A model generated the notes under the pieces. It saw nothing but the letters and a program-made list of their open reading frames with translations, did no database searches and had not been told where the DNA came from. The position numbers and the translations under genes were made by a program. This document shows positions 18,010 through 63,565 of a stretch of 64,000 nucleotides of DNA, piece by piece. The number at the start of each line of letters is the position of its first letter. Position 1 is the first letter of the stretch. Origin of the DNA: Candidatus Omnitrophota bacterium (lineage in GTDB: Bacteria > Omnitrophota > Gorgyraeia > Zapsychrales > Zapsychraceae); contig JAGQKV010000002.1 in assembly GCA_020429915.1 (NCBI GenBank), forward strand, positions 128,061-192,060, read 5' to 3'.

Positions 18010-18456
18010 CTATTTTCGCTTTGCGGCTTTCTTTTTGGTCGCCTTTTTCTTGACGGCCTTTTTCTTGGTCGCTTTTTTCTTCACGGCCTTTTTCTTGGTC
18101 GCCGGCCTGCGAACGGCCTTTTTCTTGGTCGCCTTACGCTTGACAGCCTTTTTCTTTGTTGCTTTCTTCTTGACGGCTTTCTTCTTGGTTGCTTTCTTGG
18201 TTGCCTTGCGTTTGGTGGCCTTACGCTTCTTTCCCCCGCGAACCATTTTTGCGCTGGAGATGTCACCATTCTTATCTATGAAGTATAGATAGCCTGGTTT
18301 CTTCTTCACTCCGACCTTAGCAACCTTTTTCGGCTTACCACCTTTTTTGCTGCCGCGGGCCATCTTCGCGCAAGAAATGTCGCCATTCTTATCGACAAAG
18401 TAAAGGTATCCGGATTCTTTCTTGATACCGATCTTTGCCACTTTTTGCGTAGCCAT
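18010..18456 (-). CDS. Lysine-rich histone H1-like / nucleoid-associated basic protein with tandem repeats
   Basis: 148 aa. Two N-terminal about 37-aa repeats (IGIKKESGYLYFVDKNGDISCAKMARG and VGVKKKPGYLYFIDKNGDISSAKMVRG) and a C-terminal (KKAVKKKATKKKAV)n tail. Encoded by tandem approx 30-bp DNA repeats. Confidence 0.6.
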   Translation of the reverse strand: MATQKVAKIGIKKESGYLYFVDKNGDISCAKMARGSKKGGKPKKVAKVGVKKKPGYLYFIDKNGDISSAKMVRGGKKRKATKRKATKKATKKKAVKKKATKKKAVKRKATKKKAVRRPATKKKAVKKKATKKKAVKKKATKKKAAKRK

Positions 18457-42615: not shown

Positions 42616-44325
42616 ATGCGGTTGATTTGGGGTAAAGTTTCACATTTCGTCTTTGCGATCCTGTGTATCGTCATTGTGGTCACGGCGAGCTATTTTTCCT
42701 CTCTGTCTGCGCCTTTCGTCTGGCAGGACCAGACGCTCATCGTCAACAACGAACAGATCAAACATCTGGAAAAGTGGGACGAGCTGCTCACAACCACGGT
42801 GCAGATGGATACCGTCTCCCAGACGTTCTACCGTCCCCTGCAGATGATGACCTATATGTTCGACCATATGATCTGGAAGGACGAGCCGTTCGGTTATCAC
42901 CTCACGAATTTGGTCCTCCACTGTCTGGCCGGGGTTTGCCTGATGGAGCTGTTGTGGCTGTTAACGCTGAACCGCTGGACCGCTTTTTTCGGCGCTCTAT
43001 TGTTTGTGTCCCACCCCATTCATACCGAGGCCGTGGCCTACGTGTCCGGCCGGTCCGACCCGCTGGCCGCCATCTTCACCTTTCTGACTATCGGCAATTA
43101 CATCTATTCCTGCAAAATGAAGAACGCCTTCAAGTCGAGCGTGTACGCCCTGCTCGGACTGATTTTTTTTGCCGTCGCCTTGCTGGCCAAGGAGCACGCG
43201 GTCATTGTCCCGCTGCTGATGGTGTTGTATCACGTCGCGTATAAAACCAAGATCCGCTGGGCTGCGATCATGCCCTACTTCCTGGTGGCCGCGACGTATA
43301 TCGGGCTGCGCGTGACAGGGGTATTCGTGTCCGCGATCCAGCTGGATTCTCTGTCGGGAGTGACCCTGCCGGAACGGCTGCCCGGATTCTTCGTCGCCCT
43401 CTTTTCCTACATCCGGCTGCTGATCCTGCCGATCAACCTGCAGTCCCACTACGGTCAGGAGACGTTTGACTTCGGAGATTCGCAGTCGATCGCCGGGATG
43501 TCGATCTTTATCTTGATGGTGATCCTCTTTTTTAAGCAACGGCGCGACTACCCGCTGATGAGCTTTGCCATCGGCTGGTTTCTGCTGGCCCTGCTGCCGG
43601 TCTCCAATTTGGTCCCGATCCAGTCGTATATGGCTGAGCATTGGCTGTATATTCCCTCGGTGGGATACTTCATCCTGTTCGGGATGTTTTTCGGTTTTCT
43701 CTACCGGCGTATCAAACAGAAATGGTTTGTCGAGATTATGTTCGGGATCCTGCTCGTGTTTCAGATCGTGTTGACTGTCCAACAGAACCGTGTGTGGCAA
43801 GACCCGGTGGCGTTGTACACCCGGATGCTCAATCACAATCCTTCGATGGCCAAGGGGCATGTCAATTTGGGAACGGCGTACCTGCGCGACGGTGATCTCG
43901 AGAAAGCCCTGATGCATTTCGGCTCGGCCATCAAGATCAACCCGCGTTACGCGGACGCACACAATCTGCTTGGGGAGGTGTATTTGCGTAAAGGGGAATA
44001 CGGCAAGGCGTACAAGAGCTTCCTGGAAGCGGTGAATTCACGGCCGCAGCATTTGGCCGGAAACACGAACGTGGCGCGCATGCTGGTTCATGAGCAACGC
44101 CTCGACGAGGCCCAGATTACGCTGGAGAAGGTGTTGCTGCTCGATCCGGACTATGTTCCCGCCCTGTACGAATTGGGACGGATCCACGAATTGATGGGAC
44201 GAACGCAGAAGGCCGTGCGATACTATCGGCAGGTGTTGACTCTCGACCCCGGGCACAAAGAAAGCCTTCAGCGGCTGGAAGCGCTGGAGGAACCGATCGA
44301 ACCCTCACCCACCCCGTTGCCGTAA
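42616..44325 (+). CDS. GT-C membrane glycosyltransferase (PMT/TMTC-like) with C-terminal TPR repeats; paralogue of 13310-15037
   Basis: 569 aa. Polytopic N-terminal domain with conserved PFGYHLTNL and HPIHTEAV. C-terminal TPR repeats (NPSMAKGHVNLGTAYLRDGD...). Confidence 0.55.
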   Translation: MRLIWGKVSHFVFAILCIVIVVTASYFSSLSAPFVWQDQTLIVNNEQIKHLEKWDELLTTTVQMDTVSQTFYRPLQMMTYMFDHMIWKDEPFGYHLTNLVLHCLAGVCLMELLWLLTLNRWTAFFGALLFVSHPIHTEAVAYVSGRSDPLAAIFTFLTIGNYIYSCKMKNAFKSSVYALLGLIFFAVALLAKEHAVIVPLLMVLYHVAYKTKIRWAAIMPYFLVAATYIGLRVTGVFVSAIQLDSLSGVTLPERLPGFFVALFSYIRLLILPINLQSHYGQETFDFGDSQSIAGMSIFILMVILFFKQRRDYPLMSFAIGWFLLALLPVSNLVPIQSYMAEHWLYIPSVGYFILFGMFFGFLYRRIKQKWFVEIMFGILLVFQIVLTVQQNRVWQDPVALYTRMLNHNPSMAKGHVNLGTAYLRDGDLEKALMHFGSAIKINPRYADAHNLLGEVYLRKGEYGKAYKSFLEAVNSRPQHLAGNTNVARMLVHEQRLDEAQITLEKVLLLDPDYVPALYELGRIHELMGRTQKAVRYYRQVLTLDPGHKESLQRLEALEEPIEPSPTPLP

Positions 44326-44688: not shown

Positions 44689-45207
44689 TCACTCCTCTGT
44701 TGATTTTAATAAATAGTGTCTTGCCATGTAATACCCCGTTGCCGCTGGCCATAGGATTGCTGCTCCATAGCAAATGGGATTAAATAGCCTATAGGATTCC
44801 ATGTGAGAGTGGATATATAATTTCATCATCAACTCCGATACGATCATCATCGGTGTGTTGATGATGATCAAGATGTGGTATTTCCACTCTGCATCGACGG
44901 AAAGCGGGTGAGGCGCGAGCATCAGCAGGATACCGCTCATAACCATGATGCCAAGCATCAAAACCAGGAATCGAACGGCAAATTTCCATTTGAAACATGC
45001 GGCAACGCAGGCGAAGCACAGAAATAGCTGGTACAAGCTGCCGATGGTATTGGCACATGCGCGTGTGTACTCCCGGTCCCTGTTCAGACATCCTTCAAAC
45101 CACGGTAGCCAGTCGTCTATGTCCGTTCCCAGGTAGCGCACCTTCAATCCCACAAAAGAGGCACAAATAAGCCAGCCGACCATGTTTTGCGTGCGGAGTT
45201 TCATCAA
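44689..45207 (-). CDS. Hypothetical polytopic membrane protein co-transcribed with ispG
   Basis: 172 aa with about 5 TM helices. Start overlaps the ispG stop as ATGA. Local GC is clearly lower than in the flanks. Confidence 0.4.
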   Translation of the reverse strand: MMKLRTQNMVGWLICASFVGLKVRYLGTDIDDWLPWFEGCLNRDREYTRACANTIGSLYQLFLCFACVAACFKWKFAVRFLVLMLGIMVMSGILLMLAPHPLSVDAEWKYHILIIINTPMMIVSELMMKLYIHSHMESYRLFNPICYGAAILWPAATGYYMARHYLLKSTEE

Positions 45208-46618: not shown

Positions 46619-47551
46619 ATGGATATCTATCTAGCCAAAACCCAGGGGTTTTGCGCGGGTGTTTCATTTGCCATCGAGATCGTTGATGAGGCCCTGCGCC
46701 GGTTCGGAGCCCCGCTGTATGTGTATCACGAAATCGTGCACAACACTTATGTGGTCAACCAGTTCCGCGACAAAGGTGTGATTTTTGTCGAGCGCATCCA
46801 GGACGTGCCGGAAGGGTCCCGGATCATCTTTTCCGCGCACGGAGTCCCGCCCACGGTCATCGAGCAAGCCGAGGCGCGCCGGCTGCAGTTTGTCGACGCT
46901 ACCTGCCCGTTGGTGACCAAGGTCCATAATGAGGCCACCAAGTTTTCCAATCATCACTACGAAACGGTGCTGATCGGCCATCGCGGGCATCAGGAACTCA
47001 TCGGGACCGCCGGGTATGTAGATCCGCAATATCTGCATATCGTCGAGGACGAGGAAGACATCGATGCCCTCAACATCGATCCCCAGGCGCCGGTGGCCTT
47101 CATTACCCAAACGACCTTGTCGGTCGATGACACCGAGGCGATGGTCGAGAAGCTCAAACAAAAATTTCCGAACCTCAATGCCCCGCCGCGCTCCGATCTT
47201 TGTTACGCGACGCAAAACCGGCAGGATTCGGTCAAGGAACTGGCCAAGGACTGCGATGTGATCATCATCTGCGGATCGCCCAATAGTTCCAACAGCAACC
47301 GTCTGCGCGAGACCGGCGAAAAAGCGGGCTGTCCCAGCTACATAATCGACACCGCCGACGAGCTGGACTTGTCCGTTCTCAACGGAAAGAAGAAAGTCGG
47401 CATCAGCTCGGGCGCCTCGGTGCCGCGCATTATCGTGGACGATTTGGTCGCCCGCATACAGCAGCGGCATCCGGACAGCCGGGTGCATGAGTTCGACAAT
47501 CCTGAGAAAAATATCGTCTTTGCCCTGCCCAAGGAGCTGCGGGAGAATTAA
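46619..47551 (+). CDS. ispH: 4-hydroxy-3-methylbut-2-enyl diphosphate reductase (LytB)
   Basis: 310 aa. GFCAGV, HEIVHN and TCPLV motifs carrying the three cluster cysteines. Confidence 0.9.
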   Translation: MDIYLAKTQGFCAGVSFAIEIVDEALRRFGAPLYVYHEIVHNTYVVNQFRDKGVIFVERIQDVPEGSRIIFSAHGVPPTVIEQAEARRLQFVDATCPLVTKVHNEATKFSNHHYETVLIGHRGHQELIGTAGYVDPQYLHIVEDEEDIDALNIDPQAPVAFITQTTLSVDDTEAMVEKLKQKFPNLNAPPRSDLCYATQNRQDSVKELAKDCDVIIICGSPNSSNSNRLRETGEKAGCPSYIIDTADELDLSVLNGKKKVGISSGASVPRIIVDDLVARIQQRHPDSRVHEFDNPEKNIVFALPKELREN

Positions 47552-57601: not shown

Positions 57602-57603
57602 AA

Positions 57604-57635
57604 GTCGGGATACGGGATATGTGATACGGGATACG
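57604..57635. repeat. Left inverted repeat of IVS-like cassette 1 (GTCGGGATACGGGATATGTGATACGGGATACG)
   Basis: Pairs with 58061-58091 (reverse complement GTCGGGATACGTGATACGGGATAAGTGATAC). Each arm contains two direct GTGATACGGGATA-like sub-repeats. Starts 2 nt upstream of the rrf2 ATG. Confidence 0.7.
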
Positions 57636-57651
57636 AACTGGTGGCGCTACT

Positions 57652-58005
57652 TTAAAGCAGGCGATTTCGTAGTCCTGTAAGCATTTTCCCTATGTCTTCA
57701 GCTTCGGCGAATAATTTATCAAAATGGGATTCTGTTAAGTACCCAAGATCTTTGCTGAGAATAAGATGATACTTAGTTTCCTGCAAAGAACCTTGGGAAA
57801 TCTCCAAAAATCTGGCAAAATCTCGGGTCCTCTTTCGGTGACCTTCCGCGATATTGGCTCCAACCGAGGCACTTGAGCGCCGGATTTGGCTTGTTAGGCC
57901 AAACATTTCTTCGCGTGGAAATAACTTTGATGCGGAGTAGATCTCAATTGTCAGTTGGTGCGCTTTTTTCCAGACCCGAAGGTCCGTAAAATTTGAAATT
58001 TGCAT
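57652..58005 (-). CDS. Four-helix-bundle protein, TIGR02436 / 23S rRNA-IVS protein / Avd-like family
   Basis: 117 aa. WKKAHQLTIEIY, GLTSQIRRSSASVGANIAEG and RDFARFLEISQGSLQET family signature. Paralogue at 60942-61298. Confidence 0.75.
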   Translation of the reverse strand: MQISNFTDLRVWKKAHQLTIEIYSASKLFPREEMFGLTSQIRRSSASVGANIAEGHRKRTRDFARFLEISQGSLQETKYHLILSKDLGYLTESHFDKLFAEAEDIGKMLTGLRNRLL

Positions 58006-58060
58006 ACCATCCCCTTTCGTTTTCGAAGCCGGGGGATGGTAGCTCCGTAGTAAACTGTTC

Positions 58061-58091
58061 GTATCACTTATCCCGTATCACGTATCCCGAC
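58061..58091. repeat. Right inverted repeat of IVS-like cassette 1
   Basis: Reverse complement matches 57604-57635 with a few mismatches. Lies 20 nt upstream of the pcd stop codon. Confidence 0.7.
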
Positions 58092-58110
58092 TCGAATGCG
58101 AGCCGGCCGA

Positions 58111-58470
58111 TCAATTTTCACCCTTCAGGTCCGGCGCAAGTTCACCCACTTTCGCCGCCACGATAAAATCATTCTCCGACAATCCGCCGATGGCGTGGGT
58201 GCTGAGGACGATGCGCAGGTTACGGTATCCGGTCAGGTGAAGGTCCGGGTGATGGTCCTCGTCTTCGGCGATGCCGGCGACCTGGCCGATGAAGTCCACC
58301 GCCGCCATAAAGTTCTTCATCCGGTAAGTGCGTGAGATACTCTTACCCGATTCGTCGAGTTCCCACAGCGGCGTCATTTTCAAAAAGCCCCGGGCCTCCA
58401 TCTCCGACATGGGAGCGGCATGGCCTTCGCACGGCGCGCATTTGCGTTGCGTCAACGGGTTATCGGACAT
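58111..58470 (-). CDS. pcd: Pterin-4a-carbinolamine dehydratase
   Basis: 119 aa. DCoH signature (EDEDHHPDL...LSTHAIGGLSENDFIVAAK). Confidence 0.85.
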   Translation of the reverse strand: MSDNPLTQRKCAPCEGHAAPMSEMEARGFLKMTPLWELDESGKSISRTYRMKNFMAAVDFIGQVAGIAEDEDHHPDLHLTGYRNLRIVLSTHAIGGLSENDFIVAAKVGELAPDLKGEN

Positions 58471-60662: not shown

Positions 60663-60919
60663 TGGCCCGCAAAAAATTCTCTCAAGCCCAAAACGCGCCG
60701 TTTGTCATGACCATGAAACCGGGGCGCTATGCCTGGTGTTCATGCGGCGAATCCCGCAAGCAACCCTTCTGCGACGGTAACCATGAAGAAACCGGCATGT
60801 TTCCGGTCGTGGTTCATATCGATCATGAGCAGGAGGTGCGGTGGTGTGGGTGCAAATCATCGGAATCGGCGCCGTGGTGTGATAATACGCACCTGAAGTT
60901 TCTGGAGGGTGGTGAGTGA
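60662..60919 (+). CDS. CDGSH-type domain protein with degenerate motifs (CDGNH, CDNTH)
   Basis: CSCGESRKQPFCDGNHEE and CGCKSSESAPWCDNTHLK. Start overlaps the upstream stop (TGATG). Confidence 0.7.
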   Translation: MARKKFSQAQNAPFVMTMKPGRYAWCSCGESRKQPFCDGNHEETGMFPVVVHIDHEQEVRWCGCKSSESAPWCDNTHLKFLEGGE

Positions 60920-60938
60920 TGAGTGCTGTGTGATGATC
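60905..60938. repeat. Left inverted repeat of IVS-like cassette 2 (GGTGGTGAGTGATGAGTGCTGTGTGATGATC)
   Basis: Pairs with 61357-61388 (reverse complement GGGTGATGAGTGGTGAGTGATGGGTGATGATC). Overlaps the last codons and stop of the CDGSH-2 gene. Confidence 0.7.
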
Positions 60939-60941
60939 CAG

Positions 60942-61298
60942 TTAGCGGGATTCTAGTTTTGATCTCAATCCATGTAACATCCGTCCCACTTCCTCCGCTT
61001 CTTCGTACATTCTTCTGGACTCCGCTTCCTCCAAGTACCCCAAATCACAACTGAGTATGAGATAGTATTTTATTTCTTCCAAAGAACCATGTGATATTTG
61101 CAGAAAGCGGGCAAAGTCTCGAGTTTTTTTCTTCTTTCCTTCCGCAATATTGGCGCAAACTGAAACCGCAGCTTTACGGATTTGACTCGTGAGAGAGAAC
61201 TCCTCTGATTGAGGATAATCTCGGGTGGCTTTGTAAATGCATAATGTTAATTGGTGGGCCTTCTGCCAGACGTACAAGTCTTGAAATTCTCTGATCAT
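60942..61298 (-). CDS. Four-helix-bundle protein, TIGR02436 / 23S rRNA-IVS protein / Avd-like family (second paralogue)
   Basis: 118 aa. WQKAHQLTLCIY, SLTSQIRKAAVSVCANIAEG and RDFARFLQISHGSLEE. Confidence 0.75.
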   Translation of the reverse strand: MIREFQDLYVWQKAHQLTLCIYKATRDYPQSEEFSLTSQIRKAAVSVCANIAEGKKKKTRDFARFLQISHGSLEEIKYYLILSCDLGYLEEAESRRMYEEAEEVGRMLHGLRSKLESR

Positions 61299-61356
61299 AA
61301 TTTCCCTCCTTGCTTGAATTACCGAGGGGAAACGAGAATTCTATGACACCCAATAC

Positions 61357-61388
61357 GATCATCACCCATCACTCACCACTCATCACCC
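61357..61388. repeat. Right inverted repeat of IVS-like cassette 2
   Basis: Reverse complement of the 60905-60938 arm. Ends 1 nt before the tautomerase stop codon. Confidence 0.7.
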
Positions 61389-61568
61389 TTACGCAAGAAA
61401 CTTATCCCCCTTCGCCCAATTCTCCCGCTCCACTTCGTCGATCACCAGATACGTGCTTTCCTTGGGTTTGTTGCAGACGTCGAGCATGGTTTGGGCGAAG
61501 CTGGCGGCGATTTTTTGCTTCTGCTCTTGGGTGAGTTTTCCGGCCACTCTGAGGCTGATGTACGGCAT
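61389..61568 (-). CDS. 4-oxalocrotonate tautomerase-family protein (59 aa); absent from the ORF track
   Basis: Reverse-complement translation MPYISLRVAGKLTQEQKQKIAASFAQTMLDVCNKPKESTYLVIDEVERENWAKGDKFLA, with catalytic Pro at position 2 and a beta-alpha-beta 4-OT pattern. Confidence 0.65.
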   Translation of the reverse strand: MPYISLRVAGKLTQEQKQKIAASFAQTMLDVCNKPKESTYLVIDEVERENWAKGDKFLA

Positions 61569-63387: not shown

Positions 63388-63565
63388 TAGTGATTGGGGA
63401 TCCGTCGACTCGGCTCGGGATTGAATCTGCTAATCTTTGCAGATGGTGAGCGAAGTCGAACCATTTGGGATTTGAATGTACTTCACGGTTGCGCCTAGAA
63501 CCCCAGTCCTGTCTCGGGAATGACTGTGGTCCAACTTTTCAAATCCCCAATCACTAATCACTAAT
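63388..63565. repeat. Long-range inverted repeat (TAGTGATTGGGGAT ... ATCCCCAATCACTA) enclosing about 150 nt between nadA and metX
   Basis: 14-bp arms with one mismatch at 63388-63402 and 63550-63565. Internal hairpin ATCTGC-N8-GCAGAT at 63425-63444. Confidence 0.4.

Follow-up and report, generated by a model that had tools for sequence, protein, structure and literature searches.

The 64-kb stretch of DNA analysed here (the window), from a Candidatus Omnitrophota bacterium, contains towards its right end a compact element that we call cassette 2. The element consists of one open reading frame (ORF) for a four-helix-bundle protein, enclosed by inverted arms and lying between the convergent genes for a tautomerase and for CDGSH-2. 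The original prediction had described it as a compact, inverted-repeat-bounded element that carries an Avd-like gene outside ribosomal RNA (rRNA) and resembles the intervening sequences (IVS) of rRNA. This observation is confirmed and the earlier interpretation is supported: cassette 2 is an IVS-type four-helix-bundle cassette outside rRNA. No rRNA was found in the window with Rfam at the gathering threshold, and 40 sampled related loci contained no Rfam family, so that these loci do not lie in rRNA either. All coordinates refer to the window unless a related locus (L number) is named, and 'sense' means the strand of the cassette gene.

Anatomy of cassette 2 and its paralogue

The cassette 2 protein matched TIGR02436 with E=6e-35 and 119.7 bits (cutoff 24) and PF05635 with E=9e-37 and 126 bits (cutoff 33.8) and is therefore a member of the S23p (23S_rRNA_IVP) family, in which 21,011 clusters at 50% identity reach E<=0.001. 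In a phmmer search of PDB its closest solved relative was XCC0516 (2gsc_A, E=3.9e-17 over residues 6-112), a pentamer of four-helix bundles according to Lin et al. 2006 as cited in PMC4990558. Similarity to the Avd proteins of diversity-generating retroelements (DGR) was also found, with scores below the curated cutoffs (NF033474, 42.6 bits against 80; PF22296, 39.4 bits against 40) and a further weak match to phrog_3206. Avd itself binds nucleic acid and forms a pentameric barrel with a positive charge (PMC10053308). By analogy with these solved and DGR relatives, the cassette 2 protein probably forms a pentameric nucleic-acid-binding ring. It matched no transposase or recombinase in Pfam, NCBIfam or PADLOC, no HUH (Y1) transposase domain in Pfam and no defence system in PADLOC.

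The arms of cassette 2 are 33 nt each, 88% complementary and separated by 418 nt, and their local alignment score of 46 compares with 24 for the 99th percentile of shuffled flanks. On the minus strand the upstream arm reads GG GTGATGA GTGGTGA GTGATGG GTGATGA TC, that is, four tandem heptamers, and the downstream arm reads GA TCATCAC ACAGCAC TCATCAC TCACCAC CCT. The sub-repeats that had been noticed inside the arms were recovered by Tandem Repeats Finder with period 7 and 4.0 and 4.1 copies, and in the whole window period-7 arrays with at least 3.9 copies occur only in the four arms of cassette 2 and its paralogue, cassette 1. The arms also reach the neighbouring stop codons, as the original prediction had it. 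The TGA of CDGSH-2 (60917-60919) lies inside the left (downstream) arm, whose plus strand encodes the final codons (GGE) and the stop of that gene, and the tautomerase stop codon (61389-61391) overlaps the final base of the right arm. Upstream arm and ORF are separated by a leader of about 58 nt, ORF and downstream arm by a 3-nt spacer. In the leader, the C-run TTTCCCCTC is predicted to pair with the Shine-Dalgarno region GGAGGGAAA. The GC content of both cassettes is about 43%, versus 55% for the window.

Table. Elements with inverted arms in the window and their parts
Feature	Position	Strand	Remarks
Cassette 2, whole element	60906-61389	-	about 484 nt; inverted arms around one ORF
Cassette 2, upstream arm	61357-61389	-	starts at tautomerase stop codon
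Cassette 2, 5'-leader hairpin	61301-61332	-	RNAfold; ends 2 nt ahead of ATG
Cassette 2, gene	60942-61298	-	118 aa + stop; TIGR02436 / PF05635 23S_rRNA_IVP
Cassette 2, downstream arm	60906-60938	-	33 nt
Cassette 1, whole element	57603-58092	-	paralogous element, same geometry; between pterin-4a-carbinolamine dehydratase (PCD) and Rrf2 regulator genes
Cassette 1, arms	57603-57638 and 58057-58092	-	36 nt, 86% complementary, 418 nt between
Cassette 1, leader hairpin	58006-58040	-	
Cassette 1, gene	57652-58005	-	117 aa; about 60% identical to cassette 2 protein
ORF-less inverted heptamer-type pair, NadA-MetX spacer	63388-63563 (arms 63388-63401 and 63543-63563)		TAGTGATTGGGGAT and ATCCCCAATCACTAATCACTA, 141 nt apart

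The two genes are indeed paralogous, and the claim that both cassettes share one architecture held down to the identical distance between the arms. The claim that their inverted repeats differ needs a correction: the arm sequences are related, being in both cassettes arrays of G(T/G)GAT-NN heptamers, with GGGATAC/GTGATAC units in cassette 1, whose arm stops 1 nt short of the Rrf2 ATG. A CCCCC/GGGGG leader hairpin with differing outer pairs was also predicted by single-sequence RNAfold in cassette 1 and in the related loci L094, L095, L096, L103, L013 and L022. The pairing of the C-run with the Shine-Dalgarno region thus recurs in all Omnitrophota copies, while a consensus fold of the leader (MAFFT/RNAalifold) predicted no pairs, the loop lengths varying and the alignment being poor.

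A third and more divergent 23S_rRNA_IVP gene (L001 1-480) precedes the NAPRTase gene about 3 kb outside the window on its right side and is followed by repeats of about 8 nt of the ATTCGAAG type. The source genome carries three cassettes in about 10 kb (window 57.6 kb to about 67.3 kb). Elsewhere in the window, a c-di-GMP-I riboswitch aptamer (RF01051, 57.5 bits) was found at 215-296 on the minus strand, and positions 18024-18198 hold 5.8 tandem copies of a repeat with a period of 30 nt (sub-period 15 nt) and 77% matches.

Occupied and empty sites among Omnitrophota relatives

The exact cassette 2 protein occurs in metagenome-assembled genomes labelled Candidatus Omnitrophica/Omnitrophota. To compare insertion sites, the neighbourhoods of relatives were recovered through orthologues of the adjacent L-2-hydroxyglutarate oxidase; site 2 is the position after the tautomerase gene and site 1 the PCD-Rrf2 junction. 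A contig scan with this oxidase gave a best match of 60% identity, and neither a close relative nor an empty site came from that scan. The comparison with relatives that the original prediction had proposed yielded clean empty sites at both positions. Site 2 holds a cassette in the window, L094 (oxidase 92% identical), L013 and L011. It is empty in L095 (oxidase 83%), where about 5 nt separate the convergent genes for tautomerase and CDGSH-2 and the C-terminus of CDGSH-2 is different, and in L105 from the 68% clade, where these genes have an overlap of 4 nt. The cassette directly follows metW in L096, L103 and L104, from which the tautomerase gene is missing. Its position there is 3495-3981 in L096 and 3692-4161 in L103; L105, a member of that clade, has the tautomerase gene and lacks the cassette. 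Site 1 is filled in the window, L094 and L095 and empty in L096, L097, L103 and L104, where a single nucleotide separates stop codon and ATG, and in L105, where the gap is 45 nt.

Because relatives with empty sites lack the arms, these are not repeated gene 3' ends, and many other copies have likewise kept two complementary arms; the original prediction had named the opposite of each outcome as a ground for its refutation, and both thus favour it. The comparison of filled and empty sites revealed no target-site duplication at either position. At filled sites a few bases near the upstream stop codon are replaced, and the new stop codon is often supplied by the arm. The cassette 2 orthologues in L013, L011 and L094 contain 2-4 heptamer units. 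In one of them (L011 / L012 428-1730) the gene's stop codon and the downstream arm are separated by an inserted IS256-family transposase element, for which a GACTGG(A) target duplication is seen.

The two sites differ in how their cassettes have diverged. The cassette 2 gene and its L094 orthologue share 94% amino acid identity with dN/dS of 0.06 and a synonymous divergence (pS) of 0.39, close to the values of the flanking genes, and dN/dS against the orthologues is 0.05-0.06 overall. This pattern of substitutions indicates that cassette 2 is an element that has evolved vertically under purifying selection. At site 1, the cassette proteins of the window and L094 are 63% identical with saturated synonymous sites (pS 0.81), versus 84-95% identity (pS about 0.5) for the flanks, 80-87% for the arms and 73% for the leader. 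When L095 is included, the three site 1 proteins (window 57652-58005, L094 6847-7203, L095 6852-7220) are 56-63% identical, again with saturated synonymous sites, while the flanking genes are 82-95% and the arms 60-87% identical. Since the divergence of the cassettes far exceeds that of their flanks, the PCD-Rrf2 junction holds non-orthologous cassettes in close relatives, which points to replacement or independent insertion at one site.

The heptamer unit changes from copy to copy, and it does so in both arms jointly. At site 2 it is GTGATGA in the window, GTGATCA in L096 and GTGATAA in L103; at site 1 it is GGGATAC/GTGATAC in the window, GGGATAA/GTGATAA in L094 and GTGATCA/GTGATCG in L095. 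The 18-nt spacer that separates the cassette 1 arm from the stop codon of PCD (58093-58120, minus strand, GGTGAAAATTGATCGGCCGGCTCGCATTCG) opens with GTGAAAA TTGATCG. This is similar to the GTGATCA GTGATCG array that L095 has in this position and may be a relic of an earlier cassette arm. The ORF-less inverted pair in the NadA-MetX spacer has a longer version in L094 (1207-1237, 1472-1490) and is absent in L095, whose spacer measures 105 nt. It is possible that this pair is a gene-less derivative of the same kind of element.

Heptamer arrays across the protein family

The arrangement is shared by members of several bacterial phyla. In a metagenome scan we sampled 80 loci encoding relatives that are 46-60% identical to the cassette 2 protein. 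Of 76 testable loci, 42 had inverted repeats around the gene that scored higher than the 99th percentile of shuffled flanks, with a median arm of 31 nt, and the upstream (sense) arm was purine-rich in 40 of these 42. Arrays next to family genes had periods of 7 (45 arrays) or 8 (7 arrays) and no other, comprised 2 to 11 copies and adjoined 39 of 68 genes, versus 1% of control segments. Arrays stood on either side of the gene in 48 loci, and in 36 of these the downstream unit was the reverse complement of the upstream unit with at most one mismatch, whereas only 9.7% of non-cognate unit pairs were complementary within one mismatch; the 48 loci contain 36 distinct units.

The orientation of neighbours was counted among 26 loci with long flanks. 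The left neighbour was co-directional in 24/25 loci, its stop codon a median of 4 nt from the array, and the right neighbour in 18/21, its start a median of 7 nt away. This co-orientation, together with the short gaps, indicates that the cassettes lie inside operons in the operon sense and that their arrays fill the intercistronic space. The idea that the arms act as frame-independent stops (the TGA in GTGATGA, repeated with period 7, cycles through all three frames) fits this clade and was rejected as a general explanation; stop-containing units number 22/48, versus 25 expected from shuffled units.

Matches on plasmids came mostly from heterocystous cyanobacteria, and cultured strains have cassettes of this build. 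On Nostoc punctiforme pNPUN01, where the cassette gene is NPUN_RS33770, CAGGAGT/CAGAATT arrays fill the interval between the preceding stop codon and the ATG, and CTCCTGA/CTTCTGA arrays occupy that between the stop codon of the cassette gene and the ATG that follows. A cassette of the same build is present on plasmid C of Trichormus variabilis, and a plasmid of Picosynechococcus sp. PCC 7003 (L101, NZ_CP016476.1 126543-126899) has a GGAGATA/TATCTCC cassette with the gene AWQ21_RS15215 in a type III-B CRISPR operon, where it separates cas10/cmr2 from cmr3. Plasmid pNPUN01 (L102) also carries period-7 arrays without an adjacent four-helix-bundle gene at 964-997, 43828-43859, 44801-44883 and 46627-46818; two of these form inverted pairs without an ORF, GAGTAAT/ACTTATT with 9 nt in between and AGAAGGC/GCCTCCT with 126 nt. 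On two metagenome contigs (L023 49-850, L024 2396-3170) two four-helix-bundle genes stand in tandem, 65-92 nt apart.

A proposed intervening-sequence-type element in an mRNA operon

An S23p ORF within a terminal inverted-repeat stem that bears heptamers is already known from rRNA. The IVS in 23S rRNA of Coxiella burnetii is 428-444 nt long, has a 28-bp stem of terminal inverted repeats and carries 2-3 tandem GACAGAT heptamers plus GACAGAA just ahead of the S23p ATG, in a copy number that varies among strains (Warrier et al. 2016, PMC4990558). Its GC content is below that of the genome, and RNase III cuts the stem in vitro, the 5' cut falling at the start of the first repeat (PMC4990558). According to its citation in the same paper, ORF-containing 23S IVS were also described in Leptospira (Ralph & McClelland 1993). 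Cassette 2 shares with these IVS the protein family (S23p / PF05635), the size class, an enclosing terminal stem of about 28-33 bp, the variable tandem heptamers in the 5' arm by the start codon, a GC content lower than that of the host and an ORF in the sense of the host transcript. However, it lies between tautomerase and CDGSH genes and not in helix 9, 25 or 45 of 23S rRNA.

Based on this likeness, we propose, at roughly even chances, that cassette 2 is a promoterless, operon-embedded IVS-type element with arms that form a duplex in RNA, which RNase III cuts. The cassette would have no promoter of its own and would be transcribed as the tail of a metX-metW-tautomerase operon. Its arms would pair in the transcript, so that a duplex stem of about 30 bp would enclose the entire cassette, and RNase III, cutting this stem as in the Coxiella IVS, would separate the cassette RNA from the host cistrons and so limit the harm of insertion. 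The leader hairpin would hold translation of the protein low or conditional, and the protein may act on the element's own RNA or arrays. Tandem-heptamer arms could grow, shrink and homogenise by slippage, so that the stem length would be easily restored; such slippage would explain why unit number and sequence vary while complementarity is kept. The element as a whole is gained and lost at gene junctions. Consistent with pairing in RNA, and in line with the structure prediction suggested by the original prediction, the arms are paired in the minimum-energy and the centroid structures of both cassette RNAs (z = -2.1 and -6.5). A scan with a sigma-70-type consensus, which may not suit Omnitrophota, found no promoter between arm and ATG, and no terminator was found upstream.

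Several observations weigh against this proposal, beginning with the promoter scan, whose restriction to a sigma-70-type consensus makes it possibly unsuited to this phylum. Mismatches in the arms of the sense strand are equally divided between G.U-type (35) and A.C-type (38). This candidate signature of a sense RNA therefore does not support selection on one strand: a stem selected only in the sense RNA would be expected to show an excess of G.U, and its lack suggests that complementarity may be a matter of DNA. Maintenance in DNA, or on both strands, would fit the mismatch spectrum no less well. In-register mismatches also occur once per one to two heptamers (4 over about 4.5 units in cassette 2, 5 in cassette 1), and about 40% of the sampled family members have no detectable arms, some of them because start codons were guessed and contigs were short. 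RNase III processing was demonstrated for the Coxiella IVS and is inferred here from anatomy, by analogy with that case. The parallel is also incomplete: the authors think that S23p is not made in Coxiella, its gene being unexpressed and decaying (PMC4990558), whereas the cassette 2 gene is under strong purifying selection.

The symmetry of the mismatches would be expected if cassette 2 were instead a mobile element at the level of DNA. The heptamer arrays would then be terminal inverted repeats and candidate sites for the element's own pentamer or a host recombinase that mediates insertion, excision and exchange, and pairing in RNA would be incidental. We regard this account as possible but rather doubtful. 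Presence and absence at both sites among relatives agree with it, as do the non-orthologous cassettes at site 1 with their divergence in excess of flanks and arms (63% amino acid identity and pS 0.81 versus 84-95% and about 0.5, with arms at 80-87%), the low GC content, and ORF-less inverted heptamer pairs in the window, on the Nostoc plasmid and in Xanthomonas (70 convergent pairs, PMC4692102), which resemble non-autonomous derivatives. In REP/RAYT systems and miniature inverted-repeat transposable elements, too, a small gene can lie between its own cognate inverted repeats in intergenic DNA, with gene-less pairs elsewhere. However, the only gene of the cassette encodes a 118-aa four-helix-bundle protein without a catalytic domain, for which Pfam, NCBIfam and PADLOC returned no HUH or other transposase or recombinase, and no target-site duplication is seen against the empty sites. 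The arms are tandem arrays rather than single palindromes and, in contrast to those of insertion sequences and related transposons, share no common terminal sequence among the copies of one genome; since they differ within a genome, it is unlikely that one sequence-specific enzyme serves them all in trans. A DNA transposon would likewise not be expected to share the direction of the upstream host gene in 24/25 loci unless selection acted later. An integron cassette would have a single 3' attC hairpin and not repeats on both sides of the ORF, and no integrase is encoded within 6 kb.

The position of the upstream array allows a further reading, in which the cassette is a translation-control module. 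The purine-rich upstream array would serve as a ribosome landing or Shine-Dalgarno-like region, or as a platform for the putative pentamer with one unit per subunit as in TRAP, and the downstream array would be the anti-sequence; pairing or protein binding would autoregulate the gene or restore coupling between the split host genes. We consider this improbable. The sense upstream arm is purine-rich in 40/42 loci, but purine richness of the inward strand at both ends is a property of the inverted repeat and perhaps inherited. In many loci the array ends 4-13 nt ahead of the ATG, and the sole Shine-Dalgarno-like sequence is the last unit of the array (CAGGAGT and the like); a GGAG/GAGG/AGGA core is present in 12/48 units versus 1/48 on the opposite strand, yet 36/48 units have none. 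Sequestration of the ribosome-binding site by the leader hairpin in Omnitrophota cassettes and the ending of arrays at the ATG of the next gene would agree with translational control. So would the pentameric state of the nearest solved relative 2GSC, as described by Lin et al. 2006 in the citation of PMC4990558, although the copy number of the units varies from 2 to 11 and is not fixed at five.

That the locus is a degenerate DGR remnant with an orphan Avd, or a chance or gene-end repeat, is highly improbable and already contradicted by the data. The original prediction had excluded an association with DGR, and rightly so. Avd has a homologous four-helix-bundle fold. The weak Avd similarity (NF033474, PF22296, phrog_3206) is what speaks for a remnant, but the scores stay below the curated cutoffs, no reverse-transcriptase Pfam domain was found among the called genes within 6 kb on either side, and the absence of direct repeats of at least 35 nt between 52 and 64 kb leaves no template/variable (TR/VR) type repeat. 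Unlike in DGR, heptamer arrays bracket the gene. These arms are far above chance and absent at the same gene ends in empty-site relatives.

Tandem heptamer repeats are also known from bacteria in general, among them the cyanobacterial repeats named STRR; the named units STRR1-3 were not matched to the arrays described here. In Xanthomonas campestris there are 186 GGGAATC heptamer arrays, 70 in convergent pairs (Rehm et al. 2015, PMC4692102), and TAACTGA repeats occur in Beggiatoaceae and cyanobacteria (PMC4679880). A four-unit GGGAATC array stands directly upstream of XCC0516, the crystallised family member, according to a supplementary table of PMC4692102, whose authors draw no link to the protein family. 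The cassette arms resemble these repeats in forming intergenic arrays of about four units near gene ends, often as convergent inverted pairs, and the Nostoc plasmid has both a gene-bearing cassette and ORF-less inverted heptamer pairs. However, the unit sequences differ, most of those arrays have no adjacent gene of the S23p family, and the two papers (PMC4692102, PMC4679880) read them as G-quadruplex or translational signals and make no connection to four-helix-bundle proteins. One could imagine that S23p cassettes are the gene-bearing, 'autonomous' form of widespread heptamer-array elements, the pentamer recognising the arrays with about one unit per subunit and promoting their spread, maintenance or processing, and that STRR-like, Xanthomonas GGGAATC and Beggiatoa TAACTGA repeats as well as ORF-less rRNA IVS are gene-less derivatives or relics. 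We think this unlikely at present.

The operon-embedded form, the family-wide inverted heptamer arrays with their many cognate units, and the gain, loss and replacement of cassettes appear to be undescribed so far. The Coxiella paper was the only one found to mention heptamers beside S23p, and we found no literature that generally links four-helix-bundle genes with heptamer repeats, in a search that left most subscription journals outside, so that the novelty is provisional. The S23p or four-helix-bundle family is large, annotated everywhere and without an assigned function, and rRNA intervening sequences and bacterial tandem heptamer repeats have each been a puzzle for more than 25 years. The locus and its relatives join all three in one anatomy, in which inverted heptamer arrays enclose a promoterless gene in host operons and the whole is gained, lost and replaced. 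For annotation, such cassettes explain small 'hypothetical' genes wedged in conserved operons, and the cassette of PCC 7003 may explain spurious associations of 23S_rRNA_IVP with cas genes.

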